DNA of 64,000 nucleotides, taken from NCBI GenBank assembly GCA_016200135.1, contig JACQFI010000044.1, positions 15,390-79,389 on the forward strand, read 5' to 3'. Below are positions 425 to 33,046 of the stretch, piece by piece; the stretch's first letter is position 1, and every line of letters begins with the position of its first letter. Source of the stretch: Planctomycetota bacterium. Its GTDB lineage: Bacteria > Planctomycetota > SZUA-567 > H5-PLA8. The position numbers and the translations under genes were made by a program. The notes beneath the pieces were generated by a model that was given only the letters and a program-made list of their open reading frames with translations, was not told where the DNA came from and made no database searches.

Positions 425-940
425 TTACTTCTTGTCGGAACCGAAGAAGTCGTCCAGGGCGGATTCGGCGGCCTGCTGGTACTCCTGGCTGACGCCGGAG
501 GCCTTATCCTTATTCCTCTCCATGCTGGCCAGCATGGTGTCGGTAAGCTTCTGGGTCAGTTCCTCGGCGTAGAGCCGGACCATGCCAAGAGTGGTTCGGT
601 CGTCAAAGATGACCACAACCAGGGCGCGCTCGGCCACCAGTCCGATATGGATGTTCTCGTTCTTACCCTGGTGAAAGAGGACGGAGAATTCGGTCTCGCC
701 CAGCAGCTTCGCGACTTCGCGCGTCGAAGCGAACGAACCCGCAACCAGGGCGGCGATGGAGTCGGTATTGAACGACTTGGTGAAGCCCTTCTTGGTGACC
801 AAGTGGCCTTCCTTGTCGATCAGGAGCGCGCACTTGGCCTGGGAGCGTTCGAGGAAGTGCTCGAGGATCTTGTTAATCTCTTCGATATCTTCTTCATAGA
901 AGACCAGACGCGCCTTGCGCATCTTTTCGCTGAATTCCAT
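425..940 (-). CDS. mglB: MglB-like Roadblock/LC7 GTPase-activating protein
   Basis: Translation (LLIDKEGHLVTKKG...VVVIFDDRTTLGMVRLYAEEL...DDFFGSDKK) aligns along its length with Myxococcus MglB as I remember it (Roadblock/LC7 fold, acidic C-terminus). I chose the internal ATG at 940 because a GAGGAGG RBS lies 7 nt upstream; the ORF extends to 976. Confidence 0.8.
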   Translation of the reverse strand: MEFSEKMRKARLVFYEEDIEEINKILEHFLERSQAKCALLIDKEGHLVTKKGFTKSFNTDSIAALVAGSFASTREVAKLLGETEFSVLFHQGKNENIHIGLVAERALVVVIFDDRTTLGMVRLYAEELTQKLTDTMLASMERNKDKASGVSQEYQQAAESALDDFFGSDKK

Positions 941-1086
941 CTCGTTTCCTCCTCGATCCCCACAACGCTCCGGCACATAACCGCCGCTGCCGGAGCCTGC
1001 ACAGGTCGATGATTAGGCTCTCCAGTAATACTCCCGTTTGCAGACTACGTCCAGCCTTTTGTGGACGGGCCGCATGCACACCTCTG

Positions 1087-2241
1087 CTACAGCTTGATGA
1101 ATCCTCCAAAATACGCCGCGGCGGCTGCCGCCACCAAAAGCAGCACGACGATGCCCACAATCAACCCTGCCTTGCTTCCGCCTTCAGACACGGGCTCAGG
1201 CGCGCTTTCTTCAGGGACCGCGGACGCTTCCTCCGCAGGCGCACTCACCTGCTGCTGCGCCGCCGCTTCGGCTTGGCGGCGCCGGGCGATCTCAAGCGAG
1301 ACCGGGTTCATCTTCATCGTGGATTGCACCGGCGACTCGGCAGGCGCCGATTCGGTCATCGGGGGCGGCGGCGGCGCGGGTGCGGGCGCTGGGGCCGGCG
1401 CGGGTGCAGACGCTCTAGGCGGTGGTGGCGGCGCAGGAGCCGGGGCGACGGCCACCGGAGCGGGCACAGGGGCCGGCGGCGGTGGCGCGGCGGGTCTGGG
1501 CGGCGGCGGCGGCGGAGGCGGCGGTGCGGCACGAGGCGGTGGAGGAGGCGGTGGCGCAGGCACGGAGGCAGGCGGCGGCGGCGGAGCCGCGGGCCTCGCC
1601 ATGGCCGATGAGCGCGCCGTAGCGCCGCCACGTTTGGCGCCGTCTTCGCTGTAGCCCTGTTCGCGATTGAGCTTGCGGATGACCTGCTGCGAAATGGCCT
1701 TTAATGTCTGGAAGACGCCGTCGCCGTTCACGGCCACCGCTTCGACCGTGGGCCAGTTGTTGCGGTTCATCTTGGCGTTGAGTTCTTCGGCGGGCACCGC
1801 ATTGGGAAGGTCGCGTTTGTTCCACTGCAGCACCAGCGGGATATCGTTGATGTCCAGCCCGTTCTCTTTCAGGTTCTTGGCCAGGTTCTCGAGAGACTCG
1901 ATGTTCTCGTTGATCATGTCCGGGTTCGAGTCCGCGACGAAAACGATGCCGTCGCAGCCCTGGAGCACCAGCTTGCGGGTCGCGTCGTAGTAGACCTGCC
2001 CGGGCACGGTGTAGAGCTGGAACTTGGTCCGCATGCCGGCCACGGTGCCGAGGTCCAGCGGCAGAAAGTCGAAGTAGAGGGTGCGGTCGGTCTCGGTGGC
2101 GATGGAGACGAGTTCGCCGGTCGAGTTCGCGGGCGCCTTGGCGTGAACCACCTGGAGGTTCGTCGTCTTGCCGCAGCGGCCGGGACCATAAAAGACGATC
2201 TTGCAGTTTACTTCTCGCGTCGCGAAATTGATCTGGACCAT
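1087..2241 (-). CDS. mglA: MglA-like Ras-superfamily small GTPase with ~110-aa polyproline/Ala-Pro linker and a C-terminal transmembrane tail anchor
   Basis: The N-terminal ~195 aa nearly match MglA motifs: P-loop GPGRCGKTT, switch I TETDRTLYFDFLP (intrinsic Arg finger and Thr), switch II TVPGQVYYDA, and NKRD. They are followed by PPPPPPPP/APAPAP low complexity, an acidic segment and a terminal hydrophobic helix GLIVGIVVLLLVAAAAAAYFGGFIKL. Confidence 0.85.
   Translation of the reverse strand: MVQINFATREVNCKIVFYGPGRCGKTTNLQVVHAKAPANSTGELVSIATETDRTLYFDFLPLDLGTVAGMRTKFQLYTVPGQVYYDATRKLVLQGCDGIVFVADSNPDMINENIESLENLAKNLKENGLDINDIPLVLQWNKRDLPNAVPAEELNAKMNRNNWPTVEAVAVNGDGVFQTLKAISQQVIRKLNREQGYSEDGAKRGGATARSSAMARPAAPPPPPASVPAPPPPPPPRAAPPPPPPPPPRPAAPPPPAPVPAPVAVAPAPAPPPPPRASAPAPAPAPAPAPPPPPMTESAPAESPVQSTMKMNPVSLEIARRRQAEAAAQQQVSAPAEEASAVPEESAPEPVSEGGSKAGLIVGIVVLLLVAAAAAAYFGGFIKL
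1380..1625. repeat. Extremely GC-rich (GGC/GCC/CCG)n low-complexity DNA encoding the polyproline linker of mglA
   Basis: Runs of ggcggcggc / gccggg seen directly. The opposite strand gives poly-Gly/Ala/Arg ORFs (1061..1654, 1009..1611), which are antisense artefacts. Confidence 0.6.
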
Positions 2242-2460
2242 GGGCGTTCGGGTCCCGCTCTGTTTAAACGAAAAGGTCCGGCCGCAGTCAAGTGTTTCGA
2301 AACATAGCGTCTACACGTTGTGCGTGGGTGTGTCAAGCGCGTATAGCGTATGTCATTGCGCCTCGCTAAAGATTGGCGTAGCCGAGCGCGTGCATTCGGT
2401 TTATACCTCTTTCGGGACGACGGTTACATTTCGTCCACTTTCCGCAGGAGGGAGCCCACC

Positions 2461-6333: not shown

Positions 6334-6339
6334 GACCGC

Positions 6340-7572: not shown

Positions 7573-7623
7573 AAATACGCCCTCGATTGCCGCCTATAGT
7601 AGCGCGAGACTGCCGAGTTCGGA

Positions 7624-10916: not shown

Positions 10917-11153
10917 TCAGGGCTTGGAGGTACCGTGTTCCTTTTGGCTCTTCTTCCAGCGTTCCAGGACCTCGTTGGGGTCGGGGATGGGCACCTGGTC
11001 GGCAGGGATTTTTACGACCTTGCCGTCACGCCAAGTGGTTAGAGGCATTCCCAAACGGCGATGTTCAGCTACGACACCGGCATACGCTTCGACGGCCGCC
11101 ATTTCATAAAGAACGTGGTCGGGAATATTCGGCAATTCAAGCTTTTTGATCAT
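10917..11153 (-). CDS. Small protein translationally coupled to the zeta-toxin-like gene (putative antitoxin/partner)
   Basis: 78-aa ORF whose ATG overlaps the upstream gene's TGA (ATGA at 11150-11153). It has lower GC than its surroundings. I recognise no family. Confidence 0.5.
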   Translation of the reverse strand: MIKKLELPNIPDHVLYEMAAVEAYAGVVAEHRRLGMPLTTWRDGKVVKIPADQVPIPDPNEVLERWKKSQKEHGTSKP

Positions 11154-11725
11154 GCCACACCTCCCGACTTCTTGATCTGCGAGTATATCGCGGCATCAAT
11201 GACAATCAACTGTGAGCATTCCCAGTAAGCAATGAGTCTGCTGCGGTCCGTATTGTCAAAAAGCATCCAGTGATCCATTAGCTGACCGTAGACTTGGAGA
11301 AGATTCTGGATGCTCTTTGAATGTCTCCTGCGCACGTCTTCCGGCGGAATGTGATGGCCGCCTTTGGCAACCCTGTCAGCTACCCGTTCAATAGCGGTCG
11401 ATGGGTTGGGCACCCAGAGGAAAAATAGGCGCAAGATGTAGCCTCTTGTTTTCAGATCACGAAGAAAGGGTAAGTAGCTCCGCCCTGCTAGCGTGGTTTC
11501 AAATGCAAAATCGAGGCCCTTTTCCGCCAACTCGCGCAGCCTTCGCAACATGACTTTTCCGGCTTGCAAGGACACGCCTTCTGAATTGAAGGGCGAGAGA
11601 CCCTTGGCAATCAGGTCCGCATTTACGAACTCCGCGCAGCCGGCGTATTGAGGCAAGAGCGTGTTCGCAAAGGTGGTCTTACCCGCGCCGTTGCACCCTG
11701 CGATAATGTAGACAGTCGGCACCAA
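11150..11725 (-). CDS. Zeta-toxin/AAA_33-like P-loop kinase
   Basis: N-terminal Walker A IIAGCNGAGKTT, ~190 aa. Its length and motif layout match the zeta toxin / UDP-GlcNAc kinase family. The gene is about 53% GC against ~67% around it. Confidence 0.75.
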   Translation of the reverse strand: MVPTVYIIAGCNGAGKTTFANTLLPQYAGCAEFVNADLIAKGLSPFNSEGVSLQAGKVMLRRLRELAEKGLDFAFETTLAGRSYLPFLRDLKTRGYILRLFFLWVPNPSTAIERVADRVAKGGHHIPPEDVRRRHSKSIQNLLQVYGQLMDHWMLFDNTDRSRLIAYWECSQLIVIDAAIYSQIKKSGGVA

Positions 11726-11746: not shown

Positions 11747-14059
11747 TTAAGACGCGTGGGGAACGGGCGTGGGACTCGCGCCGCCGCCCCCGCCGTTCTT
11801 ATCGTCCCCGTCCTTCGGCCGCTTGCGGTCCTTCAAATCTTCCATGCAACTCGGCGGCGGCTCGATGCCGAGCATCTTCGCAATCTCGGCCATGGCCTTG
11901 TCGGAGGCTCGGGCGACCTCTTCGCGCGAGGCATCCTCGGGAATCTTGAACGGTTCGCCGACGAGAATCGTGACCTTGCTGGGCTTTGGGAACTTGGCCG
12001 ACCGTGGAAAGGCTTCGGTATTGCCCCTGATCGCGCAGGGGACCACCGTGGCGCCGGCCCGCTGCGCCAGGAACATCGCGCCCATCTTCGGCTTGCTCAT
12101 TTGGCCTGTGCGCGTGACCGTGCCTTCGGGGAACATCCCGATGCAGATGCCCTGCGCGAGCGCTTTCGAACCTTCTTTCAAGGCACGGATCTGGCTCGCC
12201 TCGTCCACCGGGATGCAGATCATGAAGCGGAAGAACGGATGCGCCCACGAGTAGTAGTAGCTCGAATGCATGATGTACTGCACCCGGCGTTTCATGCAGA
12301 TGCCAAGCCAGACCGGGTCGAGGAAACTGCCGTGGTTTCCAACGAGCATCACCGGGCCCGATTCAGGCACCTTGTCGCGGCCTTCGATGTGGATGCGGAA
12401 GTAAACCTTCGCGATGCACCAGGCAATGAAGCGCGCGGTGTAAAACGTAAAACGCTCGAGGGGCCCGCCCATGTTGAGCTTCTTGGGATTCGCGTAGATG
12501 CCGACATCGAGCATCCAAGCGAGCGGCAGGACCGCGAAGAAACCGAGCATCATGGCCGGCGGCATGAAATGGGCCGTGTTCCAGCGCACGTCGAAATGAG
12601 AATAGAAGCCGAATACGAACAGCGGGCCCATTAAGGCGGACGTAAAGATGAAGCCCTTGATCGAGAAGACGCGCCCGCGCATGGTCTCGTCGGTGATGGC
12701 GAGCATGTCGGCGTCGATCCGCCCGAGCAGCAGGCCGCCGCCGAGTCCCAGCAGGAACATAAAGGGAAAGAGACCCTTCGCGAGGGCCATGTTCTCGGCG
12801 TCGAGCTTCTCGATCCGGGCCCGATCGAAGGACTTCGTATCGCCGGCGATGCGTTCGGCCAGCGCCCGAATGCCCGCCCGTTCGGCCTCGGGGACTTCCC
12901 TTAAGACCTCTTCCGTCTGGTAGCGCTCCGAGAACTCCAGCAGTGCGCGCTCGGGATTGGCCGCGCCCTGCGCGCCAAAATGGGTGTGCATCGCCAGGCC
13001 GATGAGCACGTAGGCGATCGGGTAGGTAAAAAGCGGGCTTATGCGCGCGCTGAATTTGCCGATGGTGAGCGCGCCCAAGAAGAGCCCCAACCCGGCGCAG
13101 CCCAAGCCCACGCTGAAGAAGAAGATCCGGCCGCTCTCCGCCAGATGCAGCACCAGCGACGAATGCCAGGTGATTAACGTATAGAACGCGACGGCCGTGA
13201 TCCAGAATGACGCCTCGAAGACGATCAGCGCCGCGACGCCTTTCTTGCTGAGGCAGTACTTGAGGCCTGCCCAGTTGTTCCGGAAGAACTGGAGGACCTT
13301 GCCGCCTTCGGCAGGAGGAGCCGCAGTGCTGCCGCCGCGACTGGTATCCACGGCCGCTGCGGCGGACGCCCCGTTTGCCGCTTTCCGTTTCATCCCGGGC
13401 ACCGCCACCGCGTCCGGCAGCGCGCGCAGCATGAGCGTGGCGATGATGTAGAATCCGCTGGCCATGGGGATAATCGAGTAGGGCTTGTACTTGTCGGCCA
13501 GCGTACCGCCGATGTAGGTGCCGAGCAGGATGCTCACGAGCCCCGTCACCGCCAACAGGCTGGCCGCGATGCCCGTCTCTTCTTCCGGCACGACGTCCGG
13601 GATCGAACTGGCCCGCGCCGGTCCGAACGGGACCGTGAAAAGGCTGAGCAGGAAGATCACCGGCAACAGGATGAACCAATGCGTGCGGAAGTAGTCCGAC
13701 TTCAGATCGCCCAGCAGCAGGAACATCATGGCCCAGACGGTGGGCGCTTTGAGCAGGCAGACACCCCAAAGCAGACGCCTGCGGTCCATGCCGTCTACGA
13801 CCGAGCCGATCATGGGATAGAAAAAGAACTGCGGCACGACGCCGGCCAGCGTGATCAGCGCGACCTGGGAACTGGGATCCGGAAAGGCCAGCATCACCGC
13901 CGCAATGGTGGCCATCTGGTAAAAACGGTCTCCCAGCGTACCCACCAGCGATCCGAAAAACAGGCGCGTGAACCCGCCGTACGAGAAGACCCAACGCTGC
14001 TCGCCCTCGGAAGGGGCACTCGCTCCAGCATTTTCTGAGGTTGGATGCGTTTCAGCCAT
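11747..14059 (-). CDS. MFS transporter (LplT-like) fused to C-terminal 1-acyl-glycerol-3-phosphate acyltransferase (PlsC/LPLAT) domain
   Basis: The N-terminal ~500 aa contain multiple TM helices with MFS motifs (GSLVGTLGDRF). The C-terminal domain has the acyltransferase HX4D motif VGNHGSFLDP and FPEGTVTRTG. This is an Aas/LplT-type lysophospholipid re-acylation architecture. The ORF extends to 14137; I chose MAETHPT at 14059. Confidence 0.8.
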   Translation of the reverse strand: MAETHPTSENAGASAPSEGEQRWVFSYGGFTRLFFGSLVGTLGDRFYQMATIAAVMLAFPDPSSQVALITLAGVVPQFFFYPMIGSVVDGMDRRRLLWGVCLLKAPTVWAMMFLLLGDLKSDYFRTHWFILLPVIFLLSLFTVPFGPARASSIPDVVPEEETGIAASLLAVTGLVSILLGTYIGGTLADKYKPYSIIPMASGFYIIATLMLRALPDAVAVPGMKRKAANGASAAAAVDTSRGGSTAAPPAEGGKVLQFFRNNWAGLKYCLSKKGVAALIVFEASFWITAVAFYTLITWHSSLVLHLAESGRIFFFSVGLGCAGLGLFLGALTIGKFSARISPLFTYPIAYVLIGLAMHTHFGAQGAANPERALLEFSERYQTEEVLREVPEAERAGIRALAERIAGDTKSFDRARIEKLDAENMALAKGLFPFMFLLGLGGGLLLGRIDADMLAITDETMRGRVFSIKGFIFTSALMGPLFVFGFYSHFDVRWNTAHFMPPAMMLGFFAVLPLAWMLDVGIYANPKKLNMGGPLERFTFYTARFIAWCIAKVYFRIHIEGRDKVPESGPVMLVGNHGSFLDPVWLGICMKRRVQYIMHSSYYYSWAHPFFRFMICIPVDEASQIRALKEGSKALAQGICIGMFPEGTVTRTGQMSKPKMGAMFLAQRAGATVVPCAIRGNTEAFPRSAKFPKPSKVTILVGEPFKIPEDASREEVARASDKAMAEIAKMLGIEPPPSCMEDLKDRKRPKDGDDKNGGGGGASPTPVPHAS

Positions 14060-14261
14060 AGGCGAGGCACTTATCCTAAAATTCCGCTCGGGCGCAAGCG
14101 CCAGGGAATTCCGAACGACTTTCTTGACCAACTGCACGATGTGTAGTATTCTATAAGTTGAAGGAAGATATGTTGTTATATCGCGCTATATTTTCGCGTT
14201 ATCTTTCGGCAAGGACATAGGTTGCAGGAGTTTCAACTGGGTAACGCAGCAGGGAGAACAC

Positions 14262-15347
14262 GTGGGATTAGAATCGCTTACCGAGTCTCAACTCGTTGCC
14301 TACGGCTATTTCGAGAAGCTGCCCGATGGCCGTTGGGCCGTGGACCCCAAGCATCCTGAATGCGGATGTGTTGAAGGTCCGGCGGCCATCCAAGATCCCG
14401 CGATCTCGAAGGCCAAAGCCATTGGCAACTGCCAGCTCTGTTCAAACTGGAACCCGCGCGTCGGCTGCGTGCTGGGAAGCAATCTCGCACTCAGCGAAAG
14501 CCGTTGCAACCAATCGCCCATGCAGTTTGTGACGGAACAGGCCCATGCCTGGGTGGAGATCGGCCGCTTCGACCGGGCGATCTCGCGGCTGGAGACCTAC
14601 CTGAAGGCTCACAGCGACAGCCCCGACGCCTACTTGGCATTGGCCAAGGTGTACGACCATCCCGGATACCACGGCAAGGACAAGCGTCGCGCGATTGTGC
14701 TCTATGGGCGCTACATGGAGCTAAGAGGAAAGAACGCCCAATATCATCCTGAGTTCAAAAGAGCGGCGGTGCGCGTTCAGGTGCTGAGCCGGCAGGCGGT
14801 TCCGTCTTCCGCGGCAGCCGAAGAGGCGCCGCCTTTGGCCACGTTCAATTGCTTCCACCGCAGCGGGGGCCTCACCCACTTCTATGCCTGCGCGCTTACG
14901 TATGACGTGCTGGTGATGGCGTACGTGGGCGACGCCGACCCCGACTCGGGCATATCCTCGCTAGAGGTGGGCGAAACGTTCGAGAAAGCGACCTTTCTTT
15001 GGCGCAAGCTGATGGGCGAGAAAGACCTTAAACAGGAGATCGCGCTGACGGCTAAGGAGATCGAACACGTCAGTGGGCTTAATCCCGTGGCCATGGCCAA
15101 AGATCACCGTTCCAATCTCTGGATTCACCTCAACTCTGTCAAGAAGACCGCTGTCGAGGACGATGCCAAACGCGGTATCCGCAGGGTCACTATCTGGAGC
15201 GGCACGTCCGCCTATGAACTTCTCTTTCCCATGGCTCAAGCGAACCGAGCCGATCACGTCACGGCGCTGGTGCGCTTCCTTTCAAGCGAGGCCTCTCTAT
15301 CGTCCGTCACGCATCCCAAGACCAAATCTTCTTCGGTTGGCGCCTAG
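14262..15347 (+). CDS. Stand-alone paralog of the kinase C-terminal domain (unknown-function Cys-motif domain)
   Basis: GTG start with an AGGGAG RBS. Its 361 aa align end to end with residues ~470-813 of the downstream kinase. Shared blocks include YFxKxxDGRWxxD, CxLCxNWNxRxGC, GRFDxAIxxLE, YxxLAxxYxxPxYxGKDxxRAIxLYGRxxEL, FxCFxRSxG and DPDxGxS. Confidence 0.7.
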   Translation: MGLESLTESQLVAYGYFEKLPDGRWAVDPKHPECGCVEGPAAIQDPAISKAKAIGNCQLCSNWNPRVGCVLGSNLALSESRCNQSPMQFVTEQAHAWVEIGRFDRAISRLETYLKAHSDSPDAYLALAKVYDHPGYHGKDKRRAIVLYGRYMELRGKNAQYHPEFKRAAVRVQVLSRQAVPSSAAAEEAPPLATFNCFHRSGGLTHFYACALTYDVLVMAYVGDADPDSGISSLEVGETFEKATFLWRKLMGEKDLKQEIALTAKEIEHVSGLNPVAMAKDHRSNLWIHLNSVKKTAVEDDAKRGIRRVTIWSGTSAYELLFPMAQANRADHVTALVRFLSSEASLSSVTHPKTKSSSVGA

Positions 15348-15541
15348 GCACCAAATACCAACGCGAGACACTCAAGCCTCGTTAAGCCTGCCGTAACGAT
15401 GTGTTTTCGTCCTGCCTGACTTACCATCAGGCGGAAGCCTTTCTACTTGCACGAATGCTCTTGCTCTATCCCTGATTGCACGTAAAAAGATTCTACGCAA
15501 GGTGCAGTAATCGCTTTTAAGATGGATGATGTATCATTTCT

Positions 15542-17983
15542 TTGCGGCTCTTGGGTGCGGGCATGGCTGGCGTATATCAAATCGGCGAATTCGTTCTAGA
15601 ATCGAAGCTCGGCGAGGGCGGGATGGGTGTTGTATTTCGAGCGCGTCAGGTCGCGCTGGACCGCTGGGTCGCCTTGAAACTGCTCGCCCGGCCCGCCACG
15701 GGCGGTTCGACGTTCTACGAACGCTTTCATCGCGAAGCGCGCGCCGCAGCGCAGCTCGTGCATCCCAACATCATTCAGATCTACACGATCGGCGAACACA
15801 AGGGCGCGCCGTTTTACGCCATGGAGTACGTCGAGGGCGAGGACCTCGCGCATCTGCTTCGCGATACCGGCAAGTTGACGCTCGATGAGGCCGTCGAGAT
15901 CATTCGCGCCGTTGCGAAGGCGCTGGCGCTCGCGGGGGACTCCGGGATCGTCCATCGCGACATCAAGCCCGCGAATATCATGGTCTCGATGGGCGGTCTG
16001 GTAAAGGTGATGGACTTCGGCCTCGCCAAAGCGACGGCCTCGGACCATACCTTGACGCAAGACGGCCAGATCATGGGCACGCCCACGTACCTCTCGCCCG
16101 AGCAAGGCATGAGTAAAGAAGTGGACACACGCTCCGACCTGTATTCGCTCGGTTGTGTTTTCTACGAGTGCCTGTCTGGCAACCCTCCGTTCCAAGGCGA
16201 CAACCTGCCCTCGCTGATCTTCAAGCATCTCTACGAACCGGTGAAGTCGCTGCGCGAGGTCGATTCCGCGATCCCGGAGGCCCTCGAAGGCATCTGCAAC
16301 AAGCTCCTGGCGAAGAAATCGGAGGATCGCTACCAGTCCGGACTGGAACTGCTCGAGGCCCTGGCCGCCGTGAATACCAATCAGGCCCTGGCGGAGATCT
16401 CGCTCTCCAAGCGCGTGCGCAAGGTCAAAGCGGAGCGGAAAGCGAAGATGCCTGCGCAGGCCGAAGAAGACGCCACGGCCGAGGCCAGCGCCGCCGCGGA
16501 GGCGACCACGCGGGTTCTCGACACGCCTGCCACGGAAGCGCCGGCCGTTCCTCCTCCCGATGCCATGAACCTGACGCCCAACCCGGAAGCGGCCGCGGAG
16601 CCCGCGCTGCCGAGGCCCGCTGCGGCCGATTCCAAGCGCCACATGGTCTTCGACAAAGATCTTACCCTGACCGGGGACGATTACAGCCCCGCGGATGGGT
16701 CTTCCGGCGATGCGCAGAAGCCGCCTGCGAACGAAGCCGCTCTTCGTTTGGAGGATTATCGTGTTCCGCCGCCGAACTTAAAGGTGCCGCCTCCACCCCG
16801 TCCGGGCGGCAGCAGAGCAAATCTTGCGCAAGTGCCCGCACCGCCCCCTCCGCCCCAACCCACGGAGAGTTCCTCGCGCGCAGAAGCTCAGACCGAAGAA
16901 GAAATACAGCCGAAACCTCCCTCCGGCCTGTTCATGCGCCCCACCTCGGGGATGCTCATTCGCAAGAGCGGCGTCTCGAGCTACTTCCACAAGCAGGCGG
17001 ACGGGCGCTGGGGCTACGACATTTCGCAAGGGCATTGTAAGTTCGCGGAAGGCATGGCGGTCGAGGCGCTGCCCGGCGCCGATATCAACATCGGCAAGCA
17101 CGCCGATTGTCTCCTGTGCACCAACTGGAACCGCCGCAGCGGCTGCGCCATCGCGACCATTCAATACATCGAGTCCACCAGCCGGGCCAAGGGCGTGGAC
17201 CTGCTCGAAGAGGTGGCCGCGGTCTGGTGCGTGACCGGGCGTTTCGACAAGGCCATCGGCGTCCTTGAAGAACAGATTCGCAATAACCCCGGGAATCCCG
17301 ACGGCTACCGGGCCCTCGCGCGGATCTACGAACGCCCCGACTACACCGGCAAGGACCGCAACCGCGCCATCATCCTCTATGGCCGCTTCGTCGAGTTGGC
17401 CATGAAAAAGGGCGGGTACAGCAACCTGGAGATCGAGCGCGCGCAGGGCCGCGTAGCGCAGCTTCAAGTCACAGGCAACCAGCCCAAGGAAGCCCACAAA
17501 CCCGGAGCCTTCTCCGGCACCATGATTCATACGTTCCCATGCTTCTACCGTTCCAACGGGACCGTCTTCTTCGGACTGGGCGGCGTCAACCGCGATACCG
17601 TGGTGGTGGCGCGCGCAGGCGAGGTGGATCCCGATACCGGCGTGAGCGCCTCCGAGATGGGCAACCCGTTCATGCGCGCGACCACTCTGATCCGGCGCAT
17701 CAAGAGCGAGAAGGCCAAGGCCGAAGAACGCGAAGCCGTAAAGAAAGAGATCGACCGCATCTCCAAGACTTCGGTGGATCTGCTGCTCCATGAGACCGGC
17801 AAAGTCCACCTCATTCCGCTTAAGGATATCCAGGCGTTCGACTACTCGCGGGACGACGCCACCGAACAGCGCACCGTCAAACTGCGCGCGGGCGGCCATC
17901 TGCACGAACTGATCTTTTCTTCCGCCGCCGATCATGACGCCGACAAATGCGCGCTCATGATCCGCAGGCTCACGGGCAAGTGA
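15542..17983 (+). CDS. Hanks-type Ser/Thr protein kinase with Pro-rich linker and C-terminal unknown-function domain
   Basis: Kinase subdomains GEGGMGVV...ALK, HRDIKPANIM, DFGLA and GTPTYLSPE. The middle is Pro/Ala-rich disorder, and the C-terminal ~340 aa are homologous to the upstream ORF. The start may be TTG 15542 or ATG 15563. Confidence 0.9.
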   Translation: MRLLGAGMAGVYQIGEFVLESKLGEGGMGVVFRARQVALDRWVALKLLARPATGGSTFYERFHREARAAAQLVHPNIIQIYTIGEHKGAPFYAMEYVEGEDLAHLLRDTGKLTLDEAVEIIRAVAKALALAGDSGIVHRDIKPANIMVSMGGLVKVMDFGLAKATASDHTLTQDGQIMGTPTYLSPEQGMSKEVDTRSDLYSLGCVFYECLSGNPPFQGDNLPSLIFKHLYEPVKSLREVDSAIPEALEGICNKLLAKKSEDRYQSGLELLEALAAVNTNQALAEISLSKRVRKVKAERKAKMPAQAEEDATAEASAAAEATTRVLDTPATEAPAVPPPDAMNLTPNPEAAAEPALPRPAAADSKRHMVFDKDLTLTGDDYSPADGSSGDAQKPPANEAALRLEDYRVPPPNLKVPPPPRPGGSRANLAQVPAPPPPPQPTESSSRAEAQTEEEIQPKPPSGLFMRPTSGMLIRKSGVSSYFHKQADGRWGYDISQGHCKFAEGMAVEALPGADINIGKHADCLLCTNWNRRSGCAIATIQYIESTSRAKGVDLLEEVAAVWCVTGRFDKAIGVLEEQIRNNPGNPDGYRALARIYERPDYTGKDRNRAIILYGRFVELAMKKGGYSNLEIERAQGRVAQLQVTGNQPKEAHKPGAFSGTMIHTFPCFYRSNGTVFFGLGGVNRDTVVVARAGEVDPDTGVSASEMGNPFMRATTLIRRIKSEKAKAEEREAVKKEIDRISKTSVDLLLHETGKVHLIPLKDIQAFDYSRDDATEQRTVKLRAGGHLHELIFSSAADHDADKCALMIRRLTGK

Positions 17984-18014: not shown

Positions 18015-18812
18015 ATGCCCTTGTCGATTGAGGCGCGCCGCGATTTTATCGAAGGCGTCGTCCCGCTCTCGTTCTGGCTGGCCCGCAAGCTGAAGCGCGA
18101 AGGCATGCCGCTCTTCGAGGCCCTGACCGTTCGCACGAATCTCTATCGCATGACCGTCCTTTTCGACGGCATGAACCATCCGGCCTCGGGCTTTCAAGAC
18201 GCGCGCTGGAATGCGCTCGTCGCCGCGCTTCAGGCGCTCTTCGACCGGCATAAGGACGATGCCGACTCAGGCGCGCTGGAACGCGCGGCTTTGGAGCACA
18301 TGCGTCCATTCATAGAACCGCGCATCGAAGACGACGCGCGCGCCTGGCCAAAGCCGGAAGAGCGGCCATTCGGGTTCTTCACCTACGAGCTCGCACGGCT
18401 GAAGGACGGGCGTTCGCGGATCGACCTGCATCTCGCAAATCCCTTCGTGCCCGAGTCGCCGTTCGCCGCTCCCGCGGCCCGAGCGGCGGAATTGCTCCGG
18501 TTGCTCGCGGACGCGAAAGCCCGGCAGCCCGAGGCCGATTCGGTTCACTGCGGGAGCTGGCTGAATGCGCTCAAGCCGTTCCAGGAGCTCTTTCCGCCCG
18601 AGTGGGCCGCGAGCATGACCGCGCCATCCGAATTGCGCTATCACTACGGCTGGTGGGGGCAGTTCATCGACCGGACCGGCGGATTCAACCGCCGCAACGG
18701 AGAAAAGTTGCGGACCACGGGCCAATTCCCTTTTCCGTGCGTGGGCTGCCAGTGCTCTGCGGCCTCGCTGCGAACGCATCTGCTAACGCGCTTTGGCGCA
18801 GGCAATTCCTGA
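18015..18812 (+). CDS. Hypothetical protein, possibly co-transcribed with the kinase
   Basis: The ATG is preceded by GGGAG and lies 32 bp after the kinase stop. Composition is consistent with local coding. It has a Cys cluster CVGCQC near the C-terminus. I recognise no family. Confidence 0.5.
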   Translation: MPLSIEARRDFIEGVVPLSFWLARKLKREGMPLFEALTVRTNLYRMTVLFDGMNHPASGFQDARWNALVAALQALFDRHKDDADSGALERAALEHMRPFIEPRIEDDARAWPKPEERPFGFFTYELARLKDGRSRIDLHLANPFVPESPFAAPAARAAELLRLLADAKARQPEADSVHCGSWLNALKPFQELFPPEWAASMTAPSELRYHYGWWGQFIDRTGGFNRRNGEKLRTTGQFPFPCVGCQCSAASLRTHLLTRFGAGNS

Positions 18813-18821
18813 ACCTTCGCG

Positions 18822-20927
18822 CTACTTCGGTCCAATGCAGTACAACGTGGACTCCGCGTGGAGATACATCCGGTCGCCTTCAAAGATCGGCGCGGACATG
18901 ATGACGTCCTGATGCGCGGGCCAGAAGTTCGTGAAACATTCCAGGCGCAGCTTCGCGACCTGCTTGTAGGTCCGGCCCGGTTCCAGCACGAGGCACGTTC
19001 CCTGATTGCCCCAGATGTACATGTACTTTCCCGCCAGCGCCGGGCTGGCCGAGGCGCCGCCTTTCAGCAGGCCGGCCTGGTTGTAGGGCATGAAAATCTC
19101 GAGATCGAGCAGGCGCTGGTAGAGCACTTCACCCTTCACCATGTCCACGACAGTCAGCAGGCCGAAATCGTCGAGCGTATACAAAAGGCCGTCGTGAACC
19201 AGCGGCGAGGCCATCGTGGCGGGATCGTAGTAGTAGGGATGGTTGTCCAGGTTGAACGGGACGTCGCGGATGATTTCCGGATCGATCTTGTCGCCTTGCG
19301 GCGCGGCGAGTTTGAAGGCCACGGCGCCTCCAAACGAGTTGGAACTGAGCGGCCCAACCGACCCCAGCTTATAGGCCACTCCGTTTTCAAGCACCGGCGT
19401 CGCGCAGCGGTTCAAGGGGCCCAGCATGGAAAACTTCTTCTCGTCGTAGGTCAGCGTCTTGCCGTCGGAGAGGCGCACGAATTCGCCGTTCGGGTAATAC
19501 AGCACTCTCTCGTTGCCCGCCTGCAGGACCACTCCCGTGCCGTGCATGTGCGTGTACCAGGTATACGGTTTGCCGGACGGCAGGTAGTGCGGACGCTCGA
19601 GGATGACCTCGCCGTTCTTCGCATTGAGGACCGTGAAATTGTTGAAGTAGACCACCAACTTGCCATCCACCAAGACCGGCGAAGTCGTGTAGCCGTGTTC
19701 CACGGGATCGTGGTTCAGCAAGCGCTTCCACTGGAGGTTTCCGTCGCGGTCGTAGCACGCGACGATGCCGGTGCCGAAGAGCGCGTAGACGAATCTGCCG
19801 TCCGTCACCGGATTGCAGGCCGTGTAGCCGGCTTCGCAATAGCTCGCCATGCTGTTGTATTTCTTGGGGGCGATCTTGGATATTTTCTGAATCATCTGCG
19901 TCTCTATGCACGCCCGCGTGTCCGGCCAGTTCGGAATCTTGAACGGCGTGACCAGTTCGACCTTGTCGATCTCCTTCAGCTTCGCCGCCAGCGGGTCCAG
20001 TTCTTTAAAGGCGTCCGCGTTCGCCTTGCGTTCTTCATCGGTCACGAAGTCGTAGCACGTAAGCCCGTGCATCCACAGCAATTTGCCGTCAGCCTTGTTA
20101 GCGCAGACCACGACCCCGGTCTCCGCCGTGAAGAAGAGCCGGTCGCCCATCATGACCGGAGCGCTGGCGCCCGGCGAAGGCAGGGGCGTCGTCCAGACGA
20201 TGCCGCGCATCTCGTAGTCGTTCGTCTTCTCGCCGTAGAGACTGCCGTTCGTCCACCAGGTCTTGCGATAGTTATTGACGGTCTTGGTATTCAGAATCAT
20301 CAGGTGGTTCCAGCCCTTCAGCAGGTTCAGCACCAACCGGCCGCCCTGCGGGATATCGATATTCTTCGGACTGGAAAAGAGCGCCGCTCCGTTGAGCCAC
20401 GCGCGGTTGGTGCCCTGCCCCTGGAACATCAACTGGTACGCGACAGGCCCGCCGGACGGAGAATAGATGTAGGTGTGCGCGTACGCGGCCATGCCTTTCT
20501 TTTCTGGCGGCACGTTGAAAATGGCGCAGAGGTCTATGCAACTGGTTTCGAGGGTGACGGACTTCCACGCCAATTCGCCGGCTTTCTCATTCTCGTCGGG
20601 CGAGAGCGTCTCCGCGCTGGGCAGCAGGTCGTCGGCGCTCGCCCCTTCCGCGATCATGAAGGGTCCCAGCACCAGCCACTGGCGGATCACGCCGTCCGGG
20701 ATCGCGGCCTCCTTGGCCGGAAGCGCGCCGTCCTTCGGCTTGCGCGCCTGCGCGGAGAGTTCTTTTACGCTCTTGGCCACGCGCCCCCAGTCGAGCGGCG
20801 GATTCGCGGTGGGATACTTACCGGTACCGTCGCCGCGCCAGCCGTTGGGCCCGGTCTCGGCCGCGAAGGCCGAGCCGCACAGAGCCAGGAGCAGCAAAAC
20901 GAAGCGCGTGTTGTTGAAAGAGCTCAT
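18822..20927 (-). CDS. Secreted PQQ-like beta-propeller repeat protein
   Basis: Signal peptide MSSFNNTRFVLLLLALCGSAFA. It has repeated motifs of the PQQ/BamB-type propeller blades (DGKLLWMHG..., YALFGTGIVACYDRDGNLQWK). The antisense ORF 18858..20972 is rejected. Confidence 0.7.
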   Translation of the reverse strand: MSSFNNTRFVLLLLALCGSAFAAETGPNGWRGDGTGKYPTANPPLDWGRVAKSVKELSAQARKPKDGALPAKEAAIPDGVIRQWLVLGPFMIAEGASADDLLPSAETLSPDENEKAGELAWKSVTLETSCIDLCAIFNVPPEKKGMAAYAHTYIYSPSGGPVAYQLMFQGQGTNRAWLNGAALFSSPKNIDIPQGGRLVLNLLKGWNHLMILNTKTVNNYRKTWWTNGSLYGEKTNDYEMRGIVWTTPLPSPGASAPVMMGDRLFFTAETGVVVCANKADGKLLWMHGLTCYDFVTDEERKANADAFKELDPLAAKLKEIDKVELVTPFKIPNWPDTRACIETQMIQKISKIAPKKYNSMASYCEAGYTACNPVTDGRFVYALFGTGIVACYDRDGNLQWKRLLNHDPVEHGYTTSPVLVDGKLVVYFNNFTVLNAKNGEVILERPHYLPSGKPYTWYTHMHGTGVVLQAGNERVLYYPNGEFVRLSDGKTLTYDEKKFSMLGPLNRCATPVLENGVAYKLGSVGPLSSNSFGGAVAFKLAAPQGDKIDPEIIRDVPFNLDNHPYYYDPATMASPLVHDGLLYTLDDFGLLTVVDMVKGEVLYQRLLDLEIFMPYNQAGLLKGGASASPALAGKYMYIWGNQGTCLVLEPGRTYKQVAKLRLECFTNFWPAHQDVIMSAPIFEGDRMYLHAESTLYCIGPK

Positions 20928-20957
20928 GCCGGGTTCCTTTTCATGCGTTCAATTCGA

Positions 20958-22097
20958 CTAAACCGCTTTTGACCTTTCCGTCTTAACCGCCGGTGCGCCC
21001 GTGGACGCGCGCACGATCCATTCCGGCTCGTAGACGATCCGCTGCGTGGGCGCTTCCGGTTCCTGGATGCGGAGCAGCAGTGTCTCGATCGCAGAACGGC
21101 CCATTTGTTCCATGGGAATCCGCGCCGTGGAGAGCGCGGGCACGCAGAAGAGCCCGATGTCGCCAAAGCCGGCGATGCTCACGTCGCCCGGCACCGCCAG
21201 ACCAAGGTCCCGGGCCGCCGCGATGGCGCCGATGGCGAACTCGTCGATCGTGCAGAAGATGGCCGTGCAGCGCTTCTCGCGCCCCAGCAAGGCCAGCGTG
21301 GCGTTGTACGCCGCCTGGCTGGTCGGATGCGTCTGGACCACCAGCTTCGGGTCCGGCTTGATGCTCGCCTCTTCCAGCGCCCGCCGGTAGCCGTTGTACC
21401 TCTGCTGAAAAAAGTAGGCGCTCTTCACAATCAGGATGATACCGATGCGCTCGTGCCCGAGCTGCACCAGCTCGTTGACGGCCGCGTACGCCGCGTTTTC
21501 GTCGCAGTGATTGACCTCGTCGAACGCGGGGCCCGTTTTGGGCGGCGCGGTGTCGAGCAGGACGGTGGGAATCTGCTGGGCGCGGAGGGCTTTCAGCACG
21601 GGTTCGCTCACGCCGCCCATCGCGACGACGCCGGCCAAGTCTTGCGCTTTGAGCGCCGCCGCGAATTCCGCGTGGGGTTCTGTGATCTTCTTGATCGAGA
21701 GGTAGGCGTTGTTTGCGTCCGCGACCTGGTGCATGCCCTGCAGGATGCGGTGATAGAAAGCCGTCTCGCGCAGGCTCGCACTGTCGGAGTGGCAGACCAC
21801 GCCAATGCAGGTGTGTGTCGCTTTCTTCACCTTCGCTTCGCGGGGCGCGACAAAGGTCCCCCGGCCGCGGATGCGTTGCAGGCAGCCTTCATCGGTCAGT
21901 TCGATCAGCGCGCGGCGCACGGTCATGTCGCTCACGCCCAGCGTCTTCGCCAGGTTTTCTTTGCTGGGGATGAGCGCGTTTTCGCGCCAAGTTCCCTTCT
22001 CGATCTGCTGGCGCAGCAAGTCCTTAACGCGGTCGTATAGGGGGCGGATGTCGTTCGGCGGCAGGCGCATACTCAAAGGTACACCAAAGGTATTCAA
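20958..22097 (-). CDS. Transcriptional regulator: GntR-type wHTH fused to LacI/PBP1-type sugar-binding domain (AraR-like)
   Basis: N-terminus LPSKENLAKTLGVSDMTVRRALIELTDEGCLQRIRGRGTFV matches the GntR HTH. The C-terminal ~280 aa are a periplasmic-binding-protein type I fold as in LacI/GalR effector domains. Confidence 0.75.
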   Translation of the reverse strand: MNTFGVPLSMRLPPNDIRPLYDRVKDLLRQQIEKGTWRENALIPSKENLAKTLGVSDMTVRRALIELTDEGCLQRIRGRGTFVAPREAKVKKATHTCIGVVCHSDSASLRETAFYHRILQGMHQVADANNAYLSIKKITEPHAEFAAALKAQDLAGVVAMGGVSEPVLKALRAQQIPTVLLDTAPPKTGPAFDEVNHCDENAAYAAVNELVQLGHERIGIILIVKSAYFFQQRYNGYRRALEEASIKPDPKLVVQTHPTSQAAYNATLALLGREKRCTAIFCTIDEFAIGAIAAARDLGLAVPGDVSIAGFGDIGLFCVPALSTARIPMEQMGRSAIETLLLRIQEPEAPTQRIVYEPEWIVRASTGAPAVKTERSKAV

Positions 22098-22159: not shown

Positions 22160-23422
22160 TTATGGAAGGTAGGGAATGGTCATCGGGCCTTCGGGCAGCA
22201 CGGCCACGGGCGCGTCGCGGCCGATGCGCTTGAGTTCCTCGTCCAGCCGCGCGCCGAGGTCGCGCACGGGTTCGAGGTGCGCGCGGCGGATCTCGTCGTC
22301 CGGAATTTTGCTATAGAACCCCACGCGCGCCTTCAAGCGGATGATCGCGAGCAACTGCGCCTCCCACTGGTCGTAGACGCTGAAGCCCGGCGAGTGGATC
22401 TTGTCCAGCAGCGCCTGCGGCGAAGCATGGTCGAAGAGCAGCGTGCGGAAGTTGCCGTGCGCGGGAAACCCGTCGCGGCATTCCGAGGCCTCGAGGATGT
22501 ACCCGCCTTCGGTCACGATCTTGGCCGCCGCCGACATGCCCTTTACGGCTTGGTAGAGATTTTGGTCGAGCGGGTAGCCGCTATTGGTGGTGACGACGAG
22601 CGGGAAGGGCTTCTCGCACTTCACCATCACGGTGGCCTTCGAAAACGCGCAGCCCTGCTGATGCGCCTGCATGACATCGCCGCAGAAGAACTTCGTGATC
22701 TGGCGCTTCTTGTTCTGCGTCACGTTGATCAGGAAATCGACAGGCAGCGCCGAACCGAGTTGGCACACGATGGCCTGCGTGGGATTGCCTTCGAGCACGC
22801 CCCACGTGCTGAGCGGGTTGCCGATCACGGTCGCGCCGTGGTAACGCATGATCGAGGAAATGTCCGCCACCGCGGGAAAGACGCCTTTGAACCCGCCGCT
22901 GAAACCCGCCATGAAGTGCGGCTCGATAAAGCCCATTACGATTCGCTTGTCGGCCTCGACGTACGCGCGGTTCAGCATCAACGCCTGGCCGTCGGACCAC
23001 GCCCCGGCGCGCAAAAGCGTCTGCGGGTCGTGGCTGTTGTGGTTCACAATCCGGTACTTGGCCGCGATATCCGCGCCGACCATCTCGTTGAGTTCGTCCG
23101 GCGTATTAACGCGGTGCGACCCCGTCCCGTTGATGATAACGAACCGGTCCGCGGGCACGTGGTCCAGCTCCGCGAAGAGCCAGCGCAGAATGCGGCCGGT
23201 GGGCAGCGGGCGCGTGATGTCGGGGATCACCACCGCGACACGGTCGCCGGACTTGATGAGTTCTTTAAGTGGTTTCGTCCCGAGCGGCGCGCGCACGGCT
23301 TCTTTGAAGCCCGCGCCTTCGTCGGGCAGGCCGTCGAGATACTTCGGCGCGAGCACGGTCACGTTCGTGCCGGGAACTTCGGCCTCGATGCCGTCGTTGC
23401 CGTATTGGAGATGAACTTTCAT
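22160..23422 (-). CDS. LarA-family (nickel-pincer nucleotide-dependent) racemase/epimerase homolog
   Basis: ~420 aa with the LarA N-terminal domain (DUF2088) pattern ...RVAVVIPDITRPLP...FIEPHFMAGFSGG... and conserved His/Lys positions. Substrate is unknown. Confidence 0.75.
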   Translation of the reverse strand: MKVHLQYGNDGIEAEVPGTNVTVLAPKYLDGLPDEGAGFKEAVRAPLGTKPLKELIKSGDRVAVVIPDITRPLPTGRILRWLFAELDHVPADRFVIINGTGSHRVNTPDELNEMVGADIAAKYRIVNHNSHDPQTLLRAGAWSDGQALMLNRAYVEADKRIVMGFIEPHFMAGFSGGFKGVFPAVADISSIMRYHGATVIGNPLSTWGVLEGNPTQAIVCQLGSALPVDFLINVTQNKKRQITKFFCGDVMQAHQQGCAFSKATVMVKCEKPFPLVVTTNSGYPLDQNLYQAVKGMSAAAKIVTEGGYILEASECRDGFPAHGNFRTLLFDHASPQALLDKIHSPGFSVYDQWEAQLLAIIRLKARVGFYSKIPDDEIRRAHLEPVRDLGARLDEELKRIGRDAPVAVLPEGPMTIPYLP

Positions 23423-23950: not shown

Positions 23951-24249
23951 GACGCGAGCGCTCCTAACTTGAGGTACAGGCGCTAAAAGGGGCAGTCAGT
24001 GAAGCAAGGAATGGAAACAGCTTAACAAAATCGCCGACCGAGGCAAGGAGCCCGCGCCGGCCACCTTGCGTAGTGGCCCTATTACGCTCCGCGCACCGGC
24101 TCTTTCACGATAAATTTCGCACCTTGGCGCAGTGCCTCAAGGACGGCATTTCACATCGGCTTCAATTCAGCCGTGCTTTGTGCCTTGACCTCTTTGCGCG
24201 AGCCCGATTACGCACGCGAAATCCCGGAGAGCCGCGGTAAACTTCGCGC

Positions 24250-25641
24250 ATGAACCCCATCGACCCGCGCTTCAAGACGATCATCGAGCCCTTCAAGCTC
24301 AAGATTGTCGAGCCGATCCCGTTCACGACGCGCGAGGAGCGCAAGGATCTGCTCGAACGCGCCGGCTACAATCTCTTCAATATCCCCGCCGAGAAAGTCA
24401 CCATCGACCTGCTCACCGACAGCGGCACCGGCGCGATGTCCGTCGAACAGTGGGCGGCGATGTTCCGCGGCGACGAATCCTACGCGGGCGCGTCGAGCTT
24501 CTACCGGCTCGAAAAAGTCGTGCGCGACCTGACGGGCTTTCCCCATTTCCTGCCCGTGCACCAGGGCCGCGCGGCCGAGAAACTGCTCTTCCAGGTCTTC
24601 GGCGGCACAGGCAAGATCATCCCCAACAACAGCCACTTCGATACCACGCGCGCGCACGTGGAGTTCAGCGGCGCGGAGGCCGTCGATCTGCTCGCGCCGG
24701 AATCCAAGGACACGCAGGTTAGCCATCCGTTTAAAGGCAACATGGACTTGGCGGCACTCGCGGATTTGCTTGCCAAAGAGCACGCGCGCATCCCGCTCGT
24801 CTGCCTGACCATCACCAACAATTCCGCGGGCGGGCAGCCGGTGAGCATGGCGAACATCCGCGGCGTCCGTGCGCTCTGCGACCAGTACAAGAAGCCTTTC
24901 TTCCTGGATGGCGCGCGCTTCGCCGAGAACGCCTACTTTATCCAGACGCGGGAGCCCGGTTACGCGGACCGTTCGGTGCGCTCCATCGCCGAAGAGGCCT
25001 TTCGTCTCGCCGATGGCTGCTGGATCAGCGCCAAGAAGGACGGCTTGGTGAACATCGGCGGCCTGCTCGCCTTCAAGGACGACGGCATCTACGAGCCGCT
25101 GCGCAATCTGCTCATCCTTCAGGAAGGTTTCCCGACCTATGGCGGGCTCGCCGGGCGTGACTTGGAAGCCCTCGCGGTTGGCCTGATGGAAGTCACCCAA
25201 GAAGATTATCTCCGCTACCGCGCCGCGACGGTGCAGTACCTCGGGCGCGGGTTCGAGGCCGCCGGCATCCCGGTCCTCAAGCCGTTCGGCGGGCATGCCG
25301 TGTACGTGGATGCCAAGAGCTTCTTGCCGCATATCCCGCCGCAGCAGTTCCCGGCGCAGGCATTCGCGGTGGCGCTCTATCTGGAAGGAGCAGTCCGTTC
25401 CGTCGAGATCGGCACGCTCATGTTCGGGCGCAAGGACCCCGCCACGGGGCAGGAACTTCCCGCGCCGCGTGAACTCGTGCGTCTCGCGCTGCCGCGCCGC
25501 GTCTATACGCAGGCGCACGTGGATTACTGCATCGAGGTCGCCCAGATTCTGGCGCGCGACAAGCACCTCATCCGGCCGCTGAAGATCGTCTCCGCGGCCC
25601 CCATCTTGAGGCATTTCACGGCGCGGCTTGCTCCTTTATAG
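24250..25641 (+). CDS. tnaA: Beta-eliminating lyase: tryptophanase / tyrosine phenol-lyase family (PLP-dependent)
   Basis: Nearly collinear with E. coli TnaA as I remember it: FKLKIVEPI, TIDLLTDSGTGAMS, FDTTRAHVE, SAKKDGLVNIGG (PLP-Lys region), QEGFPTYGGLAGRD, FPAQAF, RHFTARL. I cannot decide between indole-forming and phenol-forming activity. Confidence 0.85.
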   Translation: MNPIDPRFKTIIEPFKLKIVEPIPFTTREERKDLLERAGYNLFNIPAEKVTIDLLTDSGTGAMSVEQWAAMFRGDESYAGASSFYRLEKVVRDLTGFPHFLPVHQGRAAEKLLFQVFGGTGKIIPNNSHFDTTRAHVEFSGAEAVDLLAPESKDTQVSHPFKGNMDLAALADLLAKEHARIPLVCLTITNNSAGGQPVSMANIRGVRALCDQYKKPFFLDGARFAENAYFIQTREPGYADRSVRSIAEEAFRLADGCWISAKKDGLVNIGGLLAFKDDGIYEPLRNLLILQEGFPTYGGLAGRDLEALAVGLMEVTQEDYLRYRAATVQYLGRGFEAAGIPVLKPFGGHAVYVDAKSFLPHIPPQQFPAQAFAVALYLEGAVRSVEIGTLMFGRKDPATGQELPAPRELVRLALPRRVYTQAHVDYCIEVAQILARDKHLIRPLKIVSAAPILRHFTARLAPL

Positions 25642-25843
25642 AACCGCCGGTCACAAAATAGCGCATCCATGAAGCGCACACCCACGCTTGAGCCTGCCCC
25701 CGTAGGGTTTACGCTTCTTGAGCACCCCGTATGGATACTGCTATGTGCTGGCAGGCGCAAGAATTCGGACGCTTTAAGTCGAAAGGGTTTTGAAAAAGCG
25801 CACAATATAAGAAACTAGGACTTTCTAGTTCGTATGATAGGGT

Positions 25844-32966: not shown

Positions 32967-33046
32967 GCTTCGAAGAACCAAATGAAAAGAACCAAGAACC
33001 AAACGTTGTGGACTACGAACCACAAACCCTAAACCCATGAGCACTG

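Follow-up and report, generated by a model that had tools for sequence, protein, structure and literature searches.

The input domains and activation mechanisms of most bacterial Hanks-type kinases are obscure, notably in Planctomycetota, which carry very large kinomes. Kinases with a C-terminal TPR or WD40 scaffold have expanded in Planctomycetota and Myxobacteria (PMC11032199; bioRxiv 10.1101/2025.01.12.632604). In PknG of Mycobacterium and Corynebacterium, a rubredoxin-like domain, a kinase domain and a C-terminal TPR domain are combined in one protein, and the TPR domain is a signal-coupling scaffold (PMC8546545). The P5 domain of CheA and the free protein CheW are paralogs with a pseudo-symmetric contact and a common upstream partner (PMC7666581). 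Here we describe two adjacent genes in a 64,000-nucleotide stretch of contig JACQFI010000044.1 from a Planctomycetota bacterium, which we call the window. The first, gene S (14262..15347), encodes a 361-aa protein identical to public protein P0001, and the second, gene K (15563..17983), encodes an 806-aa soluble Hanks-type Ser/Thr kinase; both genes and all of their parts named below lie on the + strand. S is a free-standing copy of a module that also forms the C-terminal end of the kinase. Kinases with C-terminal TPR units are already known to be common, also in Planctomycetota. What is new is the module itself, an unannotated family that joins a cysteine knuckle, a TPR-like unit and a PH-like domain, together with its exclusive association with Hanks kinases and the presence of a free paralog specific to one kinase subfamily, K1.

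An earlier note on this stretch had claimed that one domain occurs twice, fused to the kinase and free in the adjacent gene on the same strand, and this claim was confirmed. BLASTP placed residues 16-343 of S against residues 481-813 of an 813-aa version of the kinase in one collinear alignment that spans 337 aa, with 34% identity, 50% positives and 13 gaps (E 5e-55). Each of the three sub-domains of S also matched its kinase counterpart significantly when searched alone: the knuckle part at 40% identity over 60 aa (E 1e-11, 46.6 bits), the TPR part at 44% over 90 aa (E 2e-23) and the PH-like part at 30% over 150 aa (E 2e-20), while 100 residue shuffles of each sub-domain, which served as a control, all scored 25 bits or less. 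Because each part matches by itself, the similarity reaches beyond TPR-like or low-complexity segments, to which the earlier note had feared it might be confined. A family hidden Markov model (HMM) scored the two window proteins at 526 and 473 bits, with S matched over positions 4-355. The 813-aa version of the kinase begins at an alternative TTG at 15542, which had been taken as its start; the public annotation (P0013, 806 aa) begins at the ATG at 15563, and we follow it here.

Both copies of the module share one layout. In S, a beta-hairpin (DGRW) and a knuckle of four cysteines, or Cys4 (C34, C57, C60 and C69), occupy 14307..14477 (aa 16-72). They are followed by a TPR-like helical unit of three repeats at 14517..14795 (aa 86-178), which holds the family-invariant loop YDxPxYxGxDxxRAxxLYxRF, and by a predicted PH-superfold domain at 14829..15296 (aa 190-345) with seven strands, a C-terminal helix and a helical insert at ~aa 233-280. 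In the kinase, the beta-hairpin and Cys4 knuckle lie at 16985..17146, again with the invariant cysteines, the TPR-like unit at 17147..17473 and the PH-superfold domain at 17528..17974, where it ends in the K1 signature ...RRLTGK. All motifs of the family are present in both window proteins, namely the DGRW hairpin, the Cys4 signature, the TPR loop (Y-[DE]-x-P-x-Y-x-G-x-D-x-x-R-A-x-x-L-Y-x-R-F across the family), F-x-C-F-[YH]-R and G-x-x-D-P-x-x-G, and S retains every family-invariant residue. The four cysteines are invariant in a 25-sequence family alignment, and the pattern C-x(21-25)-C-x2-C-x-N-W-x4-G-C was found in 37/37 members examined. Cys4 is probably a structural zinc site.

Structure prediction gave a consistent picture of the two copies. 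The AlphaFold2 model of S had a predicted local distance difference test score (pLDDT) of 75.9 and a predicted template modelling score (pTM) of 0.44; for the module of the kinase these values were 85.8 and 0.77, because of which the fused module is predicted to be one compact unit, and in its knuckle the pLDDT was 81-84 (model mef2c424a57c3). Both models run through the same order of elements: a short helix, the DGRW beta-hairpin, the Cys-rich knuckle and six or seven helices come first, then three strands that a helical insert separates from four more, and finally a long helix at the C-terminus. In these predicted structures, the helices form the helix-turn-helix repeats of a TPR superhelix, and the seven strands form an antiparallel beta-sandwich that an alpha-helix caps at its C-terminal end, as is characteristic of the PH superfold. 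The order proposed in the earlier note, a Cys4 signature followed by a TPR-like helical unit and then an alpha/beta sub-domain, was thus borne out.

The same note had found the domain unfamiliar, and Pfam, NCBIfam and PDB sequence searches indeed returned no described family that covers the module. S stayed below the Pfam thresholds for TPR families (TPR_16, 22.4 vs. 32.7; TPR_14, 21.0 vs. 23.5; TPR_19, 20.1 vs. 25), its sub-threshold matches were confined to residues 93-131, and nothing meaningful came from NCBIfam; across the family, TPR_14 was matched at E<=1 by 22 of the 25 members. PDB sequence and profile searches recovered only generic or designed TPR proteins, at profile positions ~85-170, and the TPR core is the sole part of the module with sequence relatives outside the family. 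No solved structure matched the whole composite, with Foldseek TM scores for the whole module of 0.26 or less. When the beta1-beta2 loop of the PH-like domain was checked for a phosphoinositide motif, R200 in F-x-C-F-[YH]-R was the sole conserved basic residue in the alignment. As modelled, the module therefore combines known folds with a small orphan knuckle in a new way rather than representing a new fold.

To gauge how widespread the family is, we searched 1.84 billion representative proteins exhaustively with an HMM. This yielded 36 matches below 1e-30, ~31 of them full-length clusters, and all other matches were TPR-only. About half of the full-length matches were 659-918 aa long with a C-terminal module, the remainder being 337-456 aa, and Pfam detected an N-terminal Pkinase domain in 10/10 fused members tested. 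A profile search of a 5.8-billion-protein database found at least 21 proteins among the matches listed, and among 185,579 prokaryotic species, each scanned through one genome, nine loci were detected, every one in a metagenome-assembled genome of Planctomycetota. Wherever a source names the organism, the host is an uncultured Planctomycetota bacterium. It is well supported that the S-K pair is real but rare, and that it does not extend beyond a small set of uncultured Planctomycetota.

A bootstrapped neighbor-joining tree of the module sequences, with distances computed in numpy, separated free from fused copies. Window S fell into a clade made up of free proteins only (clade S, bootstrap 100), and the kinase copies formed a second clade (bootstrap 74) composed of subfamilies K1 (bootstrap 99) and K2, with the window kinase in K1, whose typical C-terminus is ...R(L/I)TGK; K2 comprises fused as well as solo entries. 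Because free and fused copies form separate clades, the duplication is ancient; the earlier note was right that the domain is duplicated, but this did not happen locally. The placement of S outside K1 and K2 (bootstrap 74) may, however, be a long-branch artefact.

Several apparently stand-alone proteins of the K type did not hold up as true free copies. P0007, P0010, P0040, P0161 and P0164 were rejected on locus evidence, which revealed an ORF (open reading frame) running to the contig end (L002/L010, L013, L021/L022), a kinase fragment upstream in another frame (L005) or, on nanopore contigs (L023, L024), the kinase, linker and module called as consecutive ORFs. P0011, P0016, P0019 and P0025 appear to be truncated as well, judging from their sequences and short contigs. 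Contig breaks recur in the Pro-rich linker region of the kinase or shortly before it, and surveys of domain architecture that rely on such truncated or frameshifted entries overcount free copies.

The S gene lies directly upstream of a K1 kinase gene, on the same strand, in 8 of the 12 informative S loci: the window, L001/L006, L003, L004, L020, L007, L009 and L015 (=L028/L029). Across these loci, ~140-215 nt separate the stop of S from the start of the kinase, and adjacency persists to ~40% S identity and in L015 despite different flanking genes. At L008, the contig ends too early to show the neighbor of S. Seen from the kinases, S is upstream in every informative K1 locus examined and in no K2 locus, the 10 K2 loci having no S within the available flanks. 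The earlier note had proposed to survey whether fused copies and adjacent singletons always go together: the pair is kept in related genomes, but not always, since K2 kinases do without S and 4 of the 12 informative S genes are unlinked. The association of S is thus K1-specific and common, although the two genes need not be neighbors.

This distribution bears on the possibility that S is an independent paralog, an old tandem duplicate of the kinase gene that lost its kinase half and took up a job of its own (e.g., the same ligand class with another output), so that adjacency is merely historical. The deep split between the S and K clades and the old duplication it implies are in line with such an origin, as are the loci in which S stands alone. 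Moreover, synteny extends to the gene upstream of S, which encodes an MFS transporter-acyltransferase fusion, and to a valyl-tRNA synthetase (ValRS) gene, and the common descent of close genomes thus accounts for part of the adjacency. However, the adjacency, the orientation and the ~140-215 nt spacer survive to the degree of divergence noted above and among the other flanking genes of L015, and S sits at every informative K1 locus but at no K2 locus; because its association is subfamily-specific, chance linkage is not expected. We consider an independent S rather unlikely.

Rates of evolution set S apart from the kinase. Between the window and L001, identity was 55% for S, 77% for the kinase module, 85% for the catalytic domain and 39% for the linker; between the window and L007, the corresponding values were 41%, 45%, 69% and 32%. 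Even against the nearest relative, L020, S was 77% identical, and 133/137 residues of the catalytic domain (~97%) were the same. S is still a functional gene under purifying selection, as its dN/dS (ratio of nonsynonymous to synonymous substitution rates) relative to L020 was 0.137 (dN 0.141, dS 1.03). Constraint on S is much weaker than on its fused paralog and on the kinase, and this difference in rate between S and the K module is a further point for independence.

The kinase itself appears catalytically intact by its motifs. In its catalytic domain (15563..16432), the VAxK, HRD and DFG motifs are intact and the activation loop reads DFGLAKATASDHTLTQDGQIMGTPTYLSPE; it matched Pfam PF00069 (Pkinase) over residues 18-265 at 166.8 bits vs. 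a cut-off of 31.7. More fully, it carries VAxK, HRDxKPxN, DFG and an activation loop that ends in (A/S)PE and contains the LTQ threonine. VAxK, HRD and D[FS]G were present in 15/15 fused members checked, P0024 being the DSG variant, and the activation-loop/(A/S)PE pattern in 14/15, P0039 being unmatched. Between the catalytic domain and the module lies a Pro/Ala-rich linker of ~177 aa (16433..16963), which we presume to be a disordered tether because it is Pro/Ala-rich, poorly conserved (26-41% identity across orthologs) and variable in length (177-299 aa).

No transmembrane segment or signal peptide was found in S, the kinase or its linker (maximum 19-residue Kyte-Doolittle score 1.26-1.29, with 1.29 for S), and because of this both proteins are probably cytoplasmic. 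In Planctomycetota, most TPR-bearing Ser/Thr kinases cross the membrane once and have periplasmic repeats (PMC11032199), which would recommend a receptor-type view of the kinase, with the module as its sensor in the periplasm or at the membrane. That view is contradicted by the hydropathy of all three segments, and the Cys4 knuckle, if reduced, also suggests the cytoplasm; we find it scarcely credible and rejected it.

With an apparently intact, soluble kinase next door, S could instead be its dedicated substrate, docked by the K module directly or through a common partner, with phosphorylation changing what S binds. Attention falls on the N-terminus of S, where a helix motif found in clade S only, [ST]-E-[ST]-[QE]-L-[IV]-x-x-G-x-F (14274..14306, aa 5-15; helix 8-13 in the model), precedes the module. 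Its residues E8, L11 and G15 are invariant or nearly so in clade S, and the motif is absent from the kinase copies; it is a candidate phospho-acceptor or contact element. Further clade-specific residues are N74, R109, L114, E241 and R304 in S, and Y27, the LGD before C57, G86, L89 and R339 in the kinase copies. Phosphorylation would fall within [ST]-E-[ST]-[QE]-L (T7 or S9 in the window) or on a residue found only in S, such as T205. The conservation of this Ser/Thr-rich extension without a counterpart in fused copies, the conservation of T205 in S alone, the intact kinase motifs and the adjacency of the two genes in eight loci all agree with a substrate role. Bacterial Hanks kinases often phosphorylate threonines in short N-terminal peptides of the products of neighboring genes, and phosphorylation of the ETTS motif of GarA by PknG and PknB is a precedent. 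Yet the likeness of the S motif to this kinase preference is putative, position 7 is not strictly Ser or Thr (D/S shifted in P0031, R in P0035), no FHA domain or PP2C phosphatase occurs among the window ORFs scanned, and four S genes have no kinase beside them. Overall, we regard a substrate role as distinctly unlikely.

Our preferred reading, held tentatively and by analogy, is that S may be an adaptor or competitor for the partner-binding module of the kinase. The fused module would be the input or docking domain of the kinase, because TPR and PH-like folds are scaffolds for binding proteins or ligands and kinase-fused TPR units, such as that of PknG, are input or localization scaffolds. S would then bind the partner or ligand of the kinase module, or pair with the fused module itself, because it has retained the invariant residues of the knuckle, TPR loop and PH loop. 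As a stoichiometric adaptor or competitor, it could tune the recruitment or clustering of the kinase and, with that, the extent of trans-autophosphorylation; Cys4 might be purely structural or might confer sensitivity to redox state or metal. Any contact between S and K, the kind of ligand and the direction of regulation are things that we infer. In favor of this reading, the homology runs through all three sub-domains, free and fused copies have the Cys4 and other motifs in common, the fused module is predicted to be compact and to follow the element order of S, neither protein has a transmembrane segment or signal peptide, every fused member tested is a kinase that keeps its catalytic motifs, S adjoins a K1 kinase in eight loci and is under purifying selection, and the spacer between the genes lacks a terminator-like site on the + strand. 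The sensor/decoy or kinase/substrate-mimic pair suggested in the earlier note is likewise a plausible hypothesis. A bolder version holds that S and K1 embody an undescribed regulatory logic of Hanks kinases, in which a fast-evolving paralog of the input module binds that module or its ligand and switches clustering and trans-autophosphorylation in the manner of CheW and P5 or of a partner switch, possibly gated by redox state or metal at Cys4. This version is speculative, and we would not expect it to prove right in full.

Several observations weigh against an adaptor or competitor role. Four S-clade genes (L016, L025, L026 and L027) have no adjacent kinase, and the module works without a free paralog, because K2 kinases carry it with no S nearby. 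With a spacer of ~200 nt between S and K, their co-transcription is only putative. The family-invariant residues may reflect a structural core rather than a common binding site. Finally, the fast evolution of S fits a partly redundant, relaxed duplicate equally well as it fits an adaptor or modulator.

The spacer (15348..15562, ~215 nt up to the ATG) contains no terminator-like site on the + strand. Within it, at 15453..15468, is a 16-nt motif, GAATGCTCTTGCTCTA, that is unique in the window, with 0 occurrences expected by chance. As the only part of the spacer shared with close relatives, it is kept in L001 and L003, whereas L007 and L015 lack it, and it could be a promoter or operator element of the kinase gene. 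There was no evidence of a conserved RNA element or terminator in the spacer, and no spacer sequence was common to the window and L007 or L015.

Downstream of the kinase, an ORF of 265 aa with a C-terminal CxGCxC cluster (18015..18812, + strand) begins 31 nt past the kinase stop, not 32 nt as first counted. The earlier note had mentioned it as a further hypothetical gene with a Cys cluster. It matched nothing in Pfam, NCBIfam or PADLOC, and none of the related loci contains a homolog, for which latter reason we excluded it from the module. Next come genes for a PQQ/BamB-like beta-propeller protein (18822..20927), a GntR-HTH/periplasmic-binding-protein regulator (20958..22097) and LarA (22160..23422), all on the - strand, so that three genes separate LarA from the window kinase. 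In L001 and L003, LarA directly follows the kinase on the opposite strand, and because of this the ~4 kb at 18015-22097 resemble an insertion or lineage-specific gain.

Upstream, the MFS transporter-acyltransferase fusion (11747..14137, - strand, 796 aa) has an LplT/Aas-like architecture and is transcribed divergently from S. Its synteny with S holds in seven loci, with counterparts at 2598-5003 in L003, 7695-9824 in L007 and 971-3259 in L020, but L015, L008 and L016 lack the fusion. We rejected a functional tie to S, since ValRS is syntenic too and the fusion is missing from those three loci, which points to shared ancestry. A lipid connection between the MFS-acyltransferase and the PH-like domain of the module may still be conceivable. 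Between ValRS and the MFS-acyltransferase gene lies a gene for a zeta-toxin/AAA_33-like P-loop protein (11150-11725, - strand, 191 aa), whose GC content at third codon positions (GC3), 0.62, is below that of its neighbors. It has no homolog in any syntenic related locus and is possibly a recent insertion.

These surroundings also bear on whether the pair is an anti-phage defense module, with a PD-T4-6-like or MADS-like kinase whose C-terminal module senses a phage cue and with S as decoy or sensor. The kinase matched the PADLOC models PD-T4-6 and mad6 with E-values down to 2e-97 and, below the cut-off, NCBIfam antiphage_MADS6, and both the fast evolution of S and the nearby zeta-toxin-like gene would suit such a system. 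However, the PADLOC and NCBIfam matches mostly cover the generic catalytic domain, the top match reaching into the linker (residues ~7-447 at most), and antiphage_MADS6 scored 159.9 bits vs. an equivalog cut-off of 460. S and the C-terminal module matched nothing in PADLOC, the surroundings are housekeeping genes (ValRS, LarA and the MFS-acyltransferase) in conserved synteny rather than a variable island, and none of the related loci has the zeta-like gene. A role in defense is therefore very improbable, and we rejected it as unsupported, given that the PADLOC matches are mainly to the catalytic domain and that S has none.

Elsewhere in the window, no FHA or PP2C genes turned up when its main coding ORFs were scanned with Pfam, and the window kinase, used as a query in six frames, retrieved no other Hanks kinase. 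A Roadblock/LC7 protein (428..1012, - strand) adjoins a 407-aa protein (1090..2310, - strand) that has a small-GTPase domain of Arf/Rag-like type, and this pair at 428-2310 looks like an MglB/MglA-like GTPase and regulator. Nine large ORFs of 409-1263 aa (4153-6339, 6343-7593, 24211-25635, 25841-28831, 39469-40695, 41300-45088, 45426-47960, 52374-54242 and 56397-59732) have coding-like GC3 but no Pfam match at E<=1e-5 and are typical planctomycete dark matter. A B3/4-domain protein is encoded at 33041-33685 in the window and also near the lone S of L025 (assembly GCA_025491055.1, 2153-2710), probably by coincidence.

The S-K1 pair offers a compact soluble system, made up of a kinase, an orphan input module and a free paralog of that module, in which competition or adaptor pairing between paralogs could be tested. 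The module family also merits a profile model of its own. The general impact will be modest unless an interaction mechanism is demonstrated, as the family is very rare and its hosts are uncultured.

PknG invites comparison because it, too, combines a kinase with cysteines and a TPR domain. In PknG, two CxxCG pairs mark the rubredoxin-like domain, which directly adjoins the catalytic core on its N-terminal side (PMC8546545), an arrangement that the window kinase lacks; here, one CxxC and two lone cysteines form a knuckle that lies past a ~180-aa linker and is fused to the TPR unit. PknG has neither a PH-like domain nor a free paralog of its regulatory module, and sequence similarity between PknG and the window kinase is limited to the kinase and generic TPR regions. 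The genomic context differs as well, since neither glnH-glnX neighbors nor an FHA substrate were found among the window ORFs scanned.

In its PH-superfold domain tethered to a kinase, the module resembles the Ser/Thr or Tyr kinases GRK2, Btk and Akt of eukaryotes, and in the PH-TH region of Btk a small zinc site (the Btk motif) is likewise paired with the PH domain. PH chains of GRK2 and Btk were among the structural matches, at fold level only and with 5-14% identity. Unlike in the eukaryotic PH kinases, a TPR unit here stands between the knuckle and the PH domain, and there was no sign of common descent.

For the logic of the pair, CheW and CheA-P5 appear to be the best precedent, by analogy of logic only. 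As there, a C-terminal regulatory domain of a kinase is paralogous to a small free protein encoded nearby; unlike there, the shared unit is a knuckle-TPR-PH composite rather than an SH3-like barrel, the kinase is of the Hanks rather than the histidine type, and the phylogenetic breadth differs. The TPR- and WD40-tailed kinases of Planctomycetota and Myxobacteria, for their part, are mostly membrane-spanning, with long periplasmic repeat arrays that Pfam detects. By contrast, the kinase described here is soluble, carries one short TPR unit within an orphan composite module and is accompanied by a free paralog of that module.

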